The notes under the pieces were generated by a model that was not told where the DNA came from, did no database searches, and saw only the letters and a program-made list of their open reading frames with translations. Shown piece after piece: positions 28,161 to 55,910 of a DNA stretch of 64,000 nt. The stretch covers positions 14,570,001 to 14,634,000 of the forward strand of contig OX597838.1 in assembly GCA_951406725.2 (NCBI GenBank), in the 5' to 3' direction. Numbering within the stretch: position 1 is the stretch's first letter; each line of letters starts with the position of its first letter. This DNA is from Octopus vulgaris (Eukaryota). The position numbers and the translations under genes were made by a program.

Positions 28161-28233
28161 GGTTTCGTTGTGTAGTGGTTATCACGTCTGCTCCACACGC
28201 AGAAGGCCACGAGTTCGAGCCTCGCCGAAACCT
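28161..28233 (+). tRNA. trnV-CAC: tRNA-Val(CAC), variant or pseudogene
   Basis: Acceptor stem ggtttcg/cgaaacc, D arm gtgtagtggttatcac, anticodon stem tctgc/gcaga with loop tcCACac, T loop gttcgagc, T6 terminator at 28241-28246. Has C at position 33 and an A-C mismatch in the T stem. Confidence 0.82.
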
Positions 28234-33746: not shown

Positions 33747-33962
33747 AAATGTGACCGCGTGTGTACCGTTGGCGATTTTTTTTCCTCTGTCTTCCCTTCT
33801 TTGGATCTTTCCTTCTCCTTTGTTTCTGACGAAGAGCTCCGCCCGAAACGTTAAACCCTCCTCCTTCTTCCCTTCCTTCTTGAGCGTCCAATAATACTAT
33901 ATTTGTTCCACGTCCTCGCGTTGTTGTGTTTTCTCTTTGTGTTTTCATGTTTGGATTAACTT
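33747..33962 (+). mobile_element. Short Penelope-like pLTR element (family P2) ending in (TA)n
   Basis: Reverse-strand homologs at 51981-52150 and 53531-53650; contains a hammerhead. Confidence 0.72.
33822..33856 (+). ncRNA. Minimal type I hammerhead ribozyme motif
   Basis: gttt-CTGACGA-a-gagc-tcc-gccc-GAAA-CGTT-aaac. Helix I gttt/aaac, palindromic ACGT, GUU triplet. Confidence 0.72.
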
Positions 33963-33972
33963 TATATATATA

Positions 33973-34062
<90 letters not shown>

Positions 34063-34145
34063 GTAGGATAAAAATTTTTTCGGAAAAAAATTTTTTATCA
34101 ATGGTCAGCATATCAAAAAGATACCTTTAAAGGTTAAATTTATAA

Positions 34146-34443
34146 ATAATTTACAAAATAAGGGGAAAAAAAATTCTAATGCCAAATATGCCTAAACAAA
34201 AAATTGTCGATAACCATTATAATTTATGCGTCTCGAAACAAATCGATAGAAATCTCTAAAAAATTCGTTATTACCGTATTGGTCCAATTTCGGGGTTAAT
34301 TCAAAAGAAAATTTTCCCCTCTTCAGCGGCAAATACGCGAGATACGGTTTGTTTCGAGACGCATAAATTATAATGGTTATCGACAATTTTTTGTTTCGGC
34401 ATATTTGGCATTAGAATTTTTCTTCTGCCCTTATCTTGTAAAT

Positions 34444-34446
<3 letters not shown>
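34146..34446. repeat. ~100-bp inverted repeat enclosing a hammerhead
   Basis: 34146-34244 is the reverse complement of 34345-34446. The module lies between (TA)n tracts. Confidence 0.9.
34271..34332 (-). ncRNA. Type I hammerhead ribozyme motif
   Basis: Minus strand: ttgccg-CTGAAGA-gggg-[20 nt]-cccc-GAAA-TTGG-A-CCAA-TA-cggtaa. 6-bp helix I, G-C helix II, near-palindromic helix III, AUA triplet. Confidence 0.82.
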
Positions 34447-34497
<51 letters not shown>

Positions 34498-37280: not shown

Positions 37281-37359
37281 TGTCTCTGATGATGGGAATA
37301 CCCAGTGTATGGAGACGCTAACCTATCACATTGGATATTCCAGAAACAGCTGTAAGACA
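37281..37359 (+). ncRNA. Type I hammerhead ribozyme motif
   Basis: tgtct-CTGATGA-tgggaatacccagtgt...acattggatattcca-GAAA-CAGCTG-TA-agaca. 5-bp helix I, ~14-bp helix II, palindromic helix III, predicted cut after GUA at 37354. Confidence 0.85.
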
Positions 37360-38341: not shown

Positions 38342-38748
38342 TTATATGCTAAGAGATATTTTTGAATCCACATCATTAACGGTTGTTATATTATTGCTGT
38401 TATTTCTGTTCAGAAGAGGTTTGAATATTTTAATAAACCGTTTTTCTTTTATCTTTCTTCCAACCTCACTCGTGTCATGTAATTTGTGGAAAGGTAAAAT
38501 CAGAAACATTTTCTGACCGCATGTCTCTATATGTTCGCTCAGTGGGATTTGGCGAACATTGGTCTTCCAGATTTGTTGTCTGTGGACTCGTGAGTGTTCC
38601 GATAATGCATTCCCTGTCTCGCCTATATATAATTCCTCGCAATTCAGGCATTTAAAGCAGTAGATCAAATTTCCGCTTTTGCAGTTCATATCTGCAGTTG
38701 CGACAATCTGTCCATTTTTTGTTTTAATGGATCTACCAGTATGCAAGT
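38342..38748 (-). pseudogene. Penelope-like element GIY-YIG endonuclease domain
   Basis: CKSGNLIYCFKCLNCEELYIGETG...H...EH...RKIKE...FKPLLN is the PLE GIY-YIG motif set (Neptune/Nematis-like). Confidence 0.9.
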
Positions 38749-38752
38749 CAGC

Positions 38753-39872
38753 CTCATCTTCGAAAACAATACATTCCTTTTCAACGGAAAAAGCTACCTC
38801 CAAATTCAAGGCACAGCTATGAGGACGTGATTTGCTCCAGTTTTCGCGAACTCAGTATTGGGATACTTGGGACAAAACCTATAAAAAAAAAAAGATTGAA
38901 GAGAACAACGGCATAACCTTTAAAAGACATATAGAGGACACATGGAAAAGATACCTCGACGATTGTTTCCTAATTTGGACCAAATCACAAGAAAATCTGT
39001 AAGAATTCAGCACCCCCTTCAACAATCTACACCCTAGTCTCAAATTTACAAGAAGAATGAGCAACACACAATTACTAATTCTTGACATAATGGTAATTAA
39101 AAACAACACCACAATTACAACTGATAGTCATTACAAAAGCACAGATACACACCAGGACCTAAATTTCAAATCATGCCACCCAACACACACAAAACGCAAC
39201 ATCCCGCACTGTCTACGCAGGAAAATTTGTACTATACTCGATGATTCAAATACCAGAAACACCCGAAGGATTTCTGCTCAAGCAAAATTACCTTCTCCTA
39301 CTTATAGCATACAACGAGTAAAAGAGATAATTATAGAACAACTAAGGGCAACACAAAAAAGATGAACCCATCAAAGGAACACAATACCTATTTCTTTACT
39401 ACCCACAAGGGGCTAAACACAGAGAGGACTAACAAGGACAGACAAAGGGATTAAGTCGATTATATCGACCCCTGTGCGTCACTGGTACTTATTTAATCGA
39501 CCCCGAAAGGATGAAAGGCAAAGTCGACCTCGGCGGAATTTGAACTCAGAACGTAACAGTAGACGAAATACCGCTAATCATTTTGCCCGGCATGCTAACG
39601 ATTCTACCAGCTCACCGCCTGATGAACACAATACCGTTTCTAGTAACACACAATCTAGTAACACACAATCTGCATCACCAAAACATTTTTAACATCAGCA
39701 AAACAAATTTGCCAATCATAAAACAAAGTGAAAAATTAAAAAAAATTAAAAAGCATAACTAATCAAACACTTATCTTAAGCAAAAGGCAACCACACAACC
39801 TAAAGAAACTATTAACAATGGCAAAATTCAACATGAACAAACAGGTTAAAACACTCACAGTATCCAAGTGTA
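38753..39872 (+). pseudogene. Penelope-like reverse transcriptase C-terminal half plus linker, disrupted
   Basis: FLFNGKSYLQIQGTAMRT*FAPVFAN, WKRYLDDCFLIW, NNLHPSLKFT, LDIMV, YKSTDTHQDLNFKSCHP, KRQPHNLKKLL. Contains stops, frameshifts and a SINE insertion. Confidence 0.9.
39390..39619 (-). mobile_element. SINE family B inserted in the Penelope RT
   Basis: TSD gaacacaatacc on both sides. Confidence 0.9.
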
Positions 39873-39925
39873 ATTATTCTGCTCAATGTAAAAAAAAAAA
39901 AGTTATGCTATGTTTGGTAGGATAT

Positions 39926-53854: not shown

Positions 53855-55910
53855 GAAGGTTAGAGCAAAAGTGATGTCAGAGTGGGCATAACTTTTTTAT
53901 TAACTGACACAGGTCATTCAAATTTCATACATTGGTACAATAACTTTTCAGAACATACTCTTTGACGTATTTGAGCCATCATTGGACCCTACTCCCAAAC
54001 TGACGTATTTGAGCCATCATTGGACCCTACTCCCAAACTGACGTATTTGAGCCATCATTGGACCCTACTCCCAAACTGACGTATTTGAGCCATCATTGGA
54101 CCCTACTCCCAAACTGACGTATTTGAGCCATCATTGGACCCTACTCCCAAACTGACGTATTTGAGCCATCATTGGACCCTACTCCCAAACTGACGTATTT
54201 GAGCCATCATTGGACCCTACTCCCAAACTGACGTATTTGAGCCATCATTGGACCCTACTCCCAAACTGACGTATTTGAGCCATCATTGGACCCTACTCCC
54301 AAACTGACGTATTTGAGCCATCATTGGACCCTACTCCCAAACTGACGTATTTGAGCCATCATTGGACCCTACTCCCAAACTGACGTATTTGAGCCATCAT
54401 TGGACCCTACTCCCAAACTGACGTATTTGAGCCATCATTGGACCCTACTCCCAAACCATCTTTGAAAAAGTTCAGCTGTGCACTGTTTTGATCCACTTCT
54501 TCACAACTGCTTTCATCATGATCCCTGTCATCAAACCATTATCCCTGAAGACTGGTCATTGTTGGATCAAACTATTGAACCCTACTCCCAAACTGACGTA
54601 TTTGAGCCATCATTGGACCCTACTCCCAAACTGACGTATTTGAGCCATCATTGGACCCTACTCCCAAACCATCTTTGAAAAAGTTCAGCTGTGCACTGTT
54701 TTATCCACTTCTTCACAACTGCTTTCATCTGATCCCTGTCATCAAACCATTATCCCTGAAGACTGGTCATTGTTGGATCAAACTGGTAGAATTAGGAGGG
54801 CACCAGATCTGGGTTTTAATGGTGGAACAGAGGGACCACTGACCAGCTCAGCTTGCCAGTTGCCTGATTTGGTGCCAAAGATGCTTGCTGTCGTGCACTG
54901 TCATGGTGAATGTGTGTGTGTGGATCATTTCAGATTCTTGTTCTGCTGCTCTCTCCTCTTTAGTGTCTCTGTGTACTGTTTGCTGCTTTATGATTCTGCC
55001 ATATTCTGGAAAATCAAGGAGCATAATGCTCTTGTCATCTCATGAAACAATCACTACAACTTTCTGCGGTCATTGCTACTAGCTGTGGAACTTCTTAGGT
55101 CTTGGAGAATTAGTGTGATGCCATACCATGATCTGAGCCTTCATTCCTATATCCTAAAGATACCCACCATGGGGCTGCAGTGTGGCACATTGTGAAGATG
55201 TAGTGGAAGAGCTCAACTGAGCAAACAGTGCTTCTTACATTAATGCTGAGTGCAGGAATCCTTGGAGATCAAAGGTCAGGATCACCAAACTCTATCAAGA
55301 GAGTAACTCTAATGCATCCATAGGCGTGGCACTTGTGGTTGTGTAATCAGCCGGTGAATCACTGTGACTTAAGCTCCCTAATCAAATTTAAAATAAGGGA
55401 ACTTGATAGCAACAGAGAGTGATGGGGAATCTGTGAAATTAGCGAGTAAGAAAAAGAGAAAAAAAGATATACCGATATTTTATCTCCTGTCACTAGATGG
55501 GGAAAAAAAAATACCTGTCTTCATTGGCTTCAAATATTTCCAGCAGATCAGAGCCGACTTTCAAACTTCTCTCTTTCGATCAGATATCAGCTCCTGAGGT
55601 ACTCAAGTCGCACACAGTTTCCAAGACCCAAAGTTTTTTCACCATCTTCTTTAATGTATTTTGACCACAACCCTGTTGTACAGCAAGCTCCCAGATTGTG
55701 ACTTGGTGCTTGCAGTTACAAATTTCCCTCTGGTTTGCCTTCAGTGCTGGTTCCCTCCTTCATCCATTTGTGTACATTGTGATCACAGCATGCCTTATTT
55801 GAAGGTAGTATTTAGATGACCTTCTTACACAGTTGGCGATGATGTTAACGTCTTCAGTTTTGGTCAAGAAGCATTGCTTTTGCTGTCAGCTGATAGTATC
55901 TGCATTTTGT
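53855..55910 (-). mobile_element. Decayed mariner (DD34D-type) transposon
   Basis: Minus-strand remnants of HHDSAR (HDNARPH), NPDLVPS*F (SPDLAPSDF), FFKDG and VTIWELA. Boundaries approximate. Confidence 0.7.
53963..54784. repeat. 38-bp minisatellite: 13 identical units plus higher-order duplication
   Basis: tgacgtatttgagccatcattggaccctactcccaaac x13 (53963-54456), then a ~117-bp segment, two more units (54594-54669), and the same segment again. Confidence 0.95.

Follow-up and report, generated by a model that had tools for sequence, protein, structure and literature searches.

Back-to-back insertions of a non-coding, hammerhead-bearing repeat in Octopus vulgaris suggest two-site priming by a Penelope-like enzyme

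The stretch of Octopus vulgaris DNA analyzed here (the window) is 64,000 nucleotides long and holds, between two (TA)n tracts, a repeat insertion at 34061-34446 whose minus strand reads as an arm, a loop, a second arm and a tail. Its parts are as follows, with unit positions referring to the repeat family described below.

33963..34060, no strand: (TA)n tract, the target side at the long (A) end, common to this insertion and a different repeat fragment at 33750-33962
34061..34344, minus strand: direct copy, the 3' 284 nt of a ~465-nt unit (unit 183-464), starting at fixed end A and 5'-truncated at 34344
34061..34140, minus strand: tail, left unpaired in the hairpin and lying between the two fixed ends of the family, B (unit ~381) and A (unit ~469)
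34141..34241, minus strand: 3' stem arm, belonging to the direct copy
34271..34332, minus strand: type I hammerhead in the hairpin loop, found by descriptor scan
34345..34446, plus strand: inverted copy (unit 283-381), starting at fixed end B
34447..34492, no strand: (TA)n tract, the target side at the short (B) end

On the minus strand, positions 34446-34348 pair with 34241-34141 in a stem of ~99 bp, interrupted by three substitutions and a 2-nt indel with one adjacent mismatch. The 386-nt fold has a predicted energy of -165.6 kcal/mol (z -19.4), equaled by none of 100 shuffles, and the 100-bp hairpin with a tail and (TA)n flanks that an earlier note had described from the sequence is thereby borne out. 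The junction between the inverted and direct copies, at 34345/34344, is blunt. The direct copy carries about eight rare or private changes, and at one subfamily site, unit position 382, the two arms do not match, yet this base abuts the TA tract. The locus represents a single old insertion, 5'-truncated, of a non-coding ~465-nt repeat family; it is ordinary retroelement debris for which no function is required, and this copy is likely inert.

The hammerhead consists of a 6-bp helix I with one G-U pair (TTGCCG/CGGTAA, 34332-34327 with 34276-34271), the core CTGAAGA at 34326-34320, helix II (GGGG/CCCC, 34319-34316 with 34295-34292), GAAA at 34291-34288, and a palindromic helix III, ATTGG-A-CCAAT, with the triplet AUA and a predicted cut at 34277/34276. 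A descriptor scan of the whole window for the type I core (CUGANGA, GAAA and NUH) with three helices recovered this motif, the only hammerhead in the copy, confirming the canonical loop hammerhead, helices and AUA site of the earlier note, while Rfam reported no hammerhead family in 33750-34450 nor among the best 150 of 338 window matches. Taken alone, the hammerhead region is no more stable than its shuffles (z -0.07), and the fully active monomer fold is predicted to make up ~2% of the 386-nt RNA and 7% of the hammerhead alone, mainly because helix III is weak. The available text of PMC4209133 describes palindromic helix III with dimer action for metazoan motifs, and the palindrome here likewise points to action as a dimer.

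We compared 13 motifs chosen by hand in related families, where a search pattern fixing the core and helix III had located them. These families are 65-83% identical to the unit or have the motif alone in common; the core is kept, and helices I and II are altered on both sides. In this set 91% of cells are paired, against 30-46% in slid controls, and double-sided changes occur at 6/6 helix I pairs and 3/4 helix II pairs (9/14 pairs overall), so that helices I and II show the compensatory changes of a type I hammerhead. A bulged base often leaves the first helix II pair open, and helix III is uninformative because the search pattern sets it. Within the ~465-nt family decay is even, at 2.3% in the core and 2.1% in the arm, with 46 of 62 cores intact. 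Judged from these alignments, even decay together with covariation fits selection on the hammerhead in source elements and none after insertion.

The family is abundant. At no more than one mismatch, a hammerhead 22-mer has 587 matches and an arm 32-mer 691 in the 2.8-Gb genome, with no matches for controls, which supplies the genomic copy count proposed in the earlier note. Whole units measure 464-470 nt, stand head to tail, have about 33% G+C by base counts and contain no ORF, the longest stop-free frames being 51 aa (sense) and 88 aa (antisense). Unit coordinates are those of a natural copy (L022:1319-1782), with the core at 201 and the cut after 249. Two samples were drawn: sample A comprises 86 loci, out of 87 that hold the first 100 exact hammerhead 22-mer matches listed (one, on C5, was left out), and sample B the 78 loci that hold the first 100 arm 32-mer matches listed, which were not hammerhead-selected. 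Together they give 152 loci, the window copy excluded; as exact-match picks they are biased to well-kept copies, and pieces of <82% identity were left out. Three loci (L009, L038 and L069) hold consecutive units spanning the hammerhead. The family thus shows the arrangement of at least two consecutive hammerhead units that Li et al. call 'active', and the 34061-34446 copy, which does not, is a truncated offspring rather than a source element.

Back-to-back inversions make up 109 of the 152 loci, with 40 direct only and 3 of other kinds. Their outer ends lie at two fixed points, B (~381) and A (~469), 88 nt apart, classed in windows of about 20 nt because BLAST overshoots into the TA tract. On this classing 85 inversions have one end of each kind (AB), one is AA, none is BB, and one or both ends are unclassed in 23, so that AB accounts for 85/86 of those that could be classed. 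Insertion is into AT-rich, microsatellite targets, with TA tracts at one end or more in 139/152 loci and at both ends in 88/152. In addition, the family displays the inverted 5'-truncated copy, partial tandems and one-ended tail of Penelope-like elements (PLEs). These counts and the lack of an ORF uphold the earlier view of the hairpin as a recurrent, non-coding PLE integration product. An assembly or library artefact, in the form of a palindromic chimera, has in its favor that palindromes between microsatellites assemble poorly; it is nevertheless practically excluded, since the arms carry several differences and the 109 loci have distinct junctions with the same two outer ends.

The earlier note had also pointed to similar layouts in the window at 8873, 27692, 34550 and 45535. 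Inverted arms are present at all four, yet the families are unrelated, having no sequence in common with the ~465-nt unit or with each other besides TA tracts, and none has a canonical hammerhead in its loop: CTGANGA is absent on either strand at all except 27692, where the arm itself contains the 3' half of a decayed motif. These sites support a recurrent PLE-type layout, not a ribozyme-capped hairpin.

While the outer ends are fixed, the inner ends are not. We analyzed 80 simple AB inversions, leaving out 29 of the 109 in which an arm was in several pieces or the ends were AA or unclassed, and their inner ends scatter across the whole unit; the inner junction of the 34061-34446 copy is matched by none of the 80 within 12 nt on both arms. 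A fixed inner breakpoint is thus rejected, and what is fixed, the outer end of the inverted arm, is the tail signature already known from PLEs. By the earlier note's own reasoning variable breakpoints reduce the structure to PLE inversion debris, and because they vary we read the hairpin as the 'inverted copy plus tail' product of PLEs. Inner ends were also seen to cluster at unit ~156-173 and ~285-302, possible RT pause or annealing sites, and the perfect back-to-back junctions of five loci (L023, L120, L156, L163 and L169) are located in these clusters.

The position of the hammerhead follows the same pattern. It lies wholly in the loop in 33/80 simple inversions, against 29.4 +/- 3.9 by permutation with independent arm lengths (20/42 in the hammerhead-selected and 16/44 in the arm-selected sample), so that enrichment is rejected and loop placement is common but accidental. 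These results bear directly on the function first proposed for the locus, a selected non-coding hairpin RNA in which the loop ribozyme opens the ~100-bp duplex for Dicer or ADAR. Stem and core are indeed intact, read-through of any of the 109 inversions would give dsRNA, and contigs of putative RNA runs contain sequence of the family (at 34344 the contigs listed continue into the usual upstream sequence of the unit, and none of them spans the junction, which carries no weight either way). Nevertheless, the junction is found in this copy alone, a hammerhead falls in the loop no more often than by chance, core and arm decay alike, and the active fold is predicted for a very small share of the RNA. 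Moreover, substitutions in the family occur at 6.4 (A>G) and 6.3 (T>C) per 1000, with C>T and G>A dominating; with A>G and T>C equal, ADAR has left no trace, the 271 aligned pieces show no ADAR signature (none has more than 4 A>G), and the 34061-34446 copy likewise has no A>G excess. A hairpin requires no cut to serve as a Dicer or ADAR substrate. A dedicated ribozyme-capped dsRNA is accordingly not supported, and we consider it very improbable.

To characterize the template, we compared the arms with each other and with the hammerhead. Over 84 nt the arms differ by 2.8 within a locus and by 5.9 between loci (43 loci, including 34061-34446), and they agree at 402/430 diagnostic sites, which are linked, where 272 would be expected; gene conversion could account for part of this similarity. 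In 39/152 loci a piece spans the head-to-tail joint, and in 38 a piece is longer than one unit, which indicates a multimeric or circular template. Among the 88 arms of sample B, 50 extend as far as the hammerhead; 2 of them end at 246-254 and 46 run beyond the motif, indicating that the template was not cut there, and no pile-up of 5' ends was seen at the predicted cut site in these arms. This agrees with PMC11167929, the available text of which names unprocessed RNA as the main substrate, reports that purified PLE protein cuts both strands, that both target strands are extended and that two start sites bound the tail, and predicts a dimer.

Collectively, these data indicate, with a probability of roughly 0.8, that the hairpin is the product of a Penelope-like RT/GIY-YIG enzyme acting in trans and priming on both (TA)n strands at two fixed points of the RNA. 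A cDNA would start from each nicked target strand, at end A on one strand and at end B on the other, and both would copy uncut RNA, multimeric or circular, of a single source locus; the cDNAs would stop at unrelated points and their ends would be joined back to back. Where one cDNA ran past the hammerhead and the other stopped short of it, the hammerhead would come to lie in the loop. In the source lineage the hammerhead is probably held by selection, likely for the processing of multimeric transcripts, as dimers or aided by protein. Against two-site priming stand the 88-nt tail, longer than the 30-40 bp published for PLEs, the mismatch of the arms at unit position 382, and the failure to find an autonomous element with these ends among the GIY-YIG PLE loci examined.

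Fold-back by self-priming, in which the end-A cDNA turns back and copies itself as far as end B, would yield the same outline from a single start. It is argued for Adineta PLEs from palindromic junctions in the available text of PMC3846280, and it agrees with the shared variants of the arms and with the inverted arm lying inside the direct copy, as in 34061-34446 and likewise in 32/80 simple inversions. The inner ends also coincide (within 5 nt) in 10/80, where 2.4 are expected by permutation, an excess that tells against two-site priming insofar as it is compatible with fold-back too. However, the B arm outreaches the A arm in the remaining 38/80, and in six loci (L055, L065, L067, L078, L089 and L153) neither arm contains the other, the B arm measuring less than one unit, so that no single cDNA can have templated both. 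The non-nested arms exclude fold-back as a general route, and although it may have operated in a subset of loci we consider it unlikely as the explanation of the hairpin.

Two-site priming extends, with less assurance but still on the favorable side of even odds, to a general statement: the family may be a genome-scale record of an asymmetric two-site rule, by which a Penelope-type enzyme, probably a dimer, always combines an A and a B start on one source RNA that its hammerhead has left uncut. If true, this rule would trace the inverted copy of PLEs and their tail to a single event and would tie the hammerhead retrozyme to the PLE machinery through its insertion footprint. No statement of the AB rule or of single-source arms was found in the available text of the PLE and retrozyme literature searched.

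To assess which enzyme might be responsible, we surveyed GIY-YIG elements in the same genome. The unit lacks the ORF with RT and GIY-YIG of an EN+ PLE. The GIY-YIG piece in the window, used as query, has 150 matches in the genome; the 45 GIY-YIG PLE loci examined (L194-L238), a small part of the PLE families present, show no DNA similarity to the unit above 45 bits and include no autonomous element with its ends. By tblastn, PLE remnants occur in 10/193 loci. Among these elements is a young autonomous PLE with a 4271-bp tandem unit, RT and GIY-YIG by Pfam, TA targets and two ends 46 nt apart, and in all four of its inversions with both ends in view (L227, L228, L231 and L234) there is one of each end. 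Because this coding element has it too, the inverted two-end layout appears to be PLE chemistry in this genome, coding or not. Most copies of the 4271-bp element (L224-L235, e.g. L225, L227 and L229) are ≥99.5% identical, and in most of them two frames, of 454 and 775 aa, are free of stops, while L229 has one of 1199 aa; a CxxC motif precedes the GIY-YIG domain, and we take the group to be Neptune-like. CTGANGA is absent from the sense strand of the one 4271-bp unit scanned. A decayed PLE also lies within the window (38342-39900), with RT-thumb pieces on the plus strand and a GIY-YIG domain on the minus strand, which makes it another inversion, and it is interrupted by a SINE-like repeat.

The same comparison weighs on other classes of element. 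L1 elements are known for back-to-back inversions and TA targets are common among MITEs, so that the repeat might owe its spread to twin priming in the manner of L1 by a LINE-type enzyme, or might itself be a MITE, a fold-back DNA transposon bounded by terminal inverted repeats. L1 twin-primed parts are not known to overlap, whereas the arms here do. Moreover, the two ends differ by a fixed tail, the inner ends vary, the units stand head to tail without poly(A), and an RT and GIY-YIG element of this genome shows the identical layout, which together make both classes highly improbable.

Several other features were observed in the window and sampled loci. Two copies of another abundant TA-targeting family, at 33750-33962 (plus strand) and ~51960-52150 (minus strand), carry a minimal hammerhead (33826 and 52116); about 20 further copies lie in the loci examined, one in L149 being an inverted pair. 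A type I hammerhead-like motif at 37281-37359 (plus strand) has a palindromic helix III, its helices measuring 5, 5 and 3 bp. A family seen at five loci (L171, L174, L175, L177 and L186) has the same palindromic helix III as the ~465-nt unit and otherwise no detectable similarity to it; L177 also has an inverted arm. The window further contains a tRNA gene at 28161-28233 (plus strand; Rfam 50.4 bits) and homogeneous tandem arrays at 874-2412 (116 bp x 13.3, 98% matches) and 53963-54456 (38 bp x 13, 100% matches).

The main value of the family is a clean footprint of two-site priming, rather than the 34061-34446 copy itself. The family is useful because, in their available text, PMC8557442 calls the origin of PLE inverted repeats unresolved and PMC11167929 leaves the later insertion steps unvalidated. 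The A-plus-B ends, single-source arms and ribozyme read-through constrain the PLE mechanism and give defined in vitro substrates. The counts also support PLE mobilization of retrozymes, for which the arguments have until now been co-occurrence and similarity to pLTRs. In a search for octopus hammerhead and Penelope literature PMC8557442 was the sole match, and supplementary species lists may include the ~465-nt family.

Non-coding tandem units with type I hammerheads are described as non-LTR retrozymes (Cervera and de la Peña, 2020, PMC7229834, available text), and these have been argued to be non-autonomous PLE derivatives (Li, Clavereau and Pollet, 10.64898/2026.07.22.740005, available text). 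Like metazoan non-LTR retrozymes, the present family has a non-coding, low-GC, head-to-tail unit with one type I hammerhead and many dispersed copies, and PLE mobilization is proposed for both. It departs from them in a unit just over their 150-450 bp range, in occurring mostly as truncated back-to-back pairs rather than long arrays, in the single hammerhead of the 34061-34446 copy, and in a helix III that is a longer palindrome; the word 'inverted' is absent from the main text of PMC7229834.

Similarly, non-autonomous Chlamys elements such as MRC1 (PMC8557442, available text) are non-autonomous PLEs with pLTRs and multicopy head-to-tail insertions. Those elements resemble the 3' ends of autonomous families, and their clade is reported to lack canonical hammerheads, whereas the ~465-nt unit has one, and no autonomous partner for it was found among L194-L238. 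The typical PLE insertion is described as having a tail of 30-40 bp and an inverted copy truncated at its 5' end (PMC8557442 and PMC3846280, available text). EN+ PLEs, including Poseidon_Ac (PMC11167929), Adineta Pen2a (PMC3846280) and Naiad and other clades (PMC8557442), share with the family, as far as the available text of these papers goes, 5' truncation, partial tandems, the inverted truncated copy, a one-ended tail, a hammerhead in the repeat, AT-rich or microsatellite targets and insertion without a hammerhead cut; they differ from its ORF-less unit in coding capacity, and from its 88-nt tail in length. Taken together, the sequence features that define its membership suggest that the ~465-nt family works like a PLE-mobilized retrozyme.
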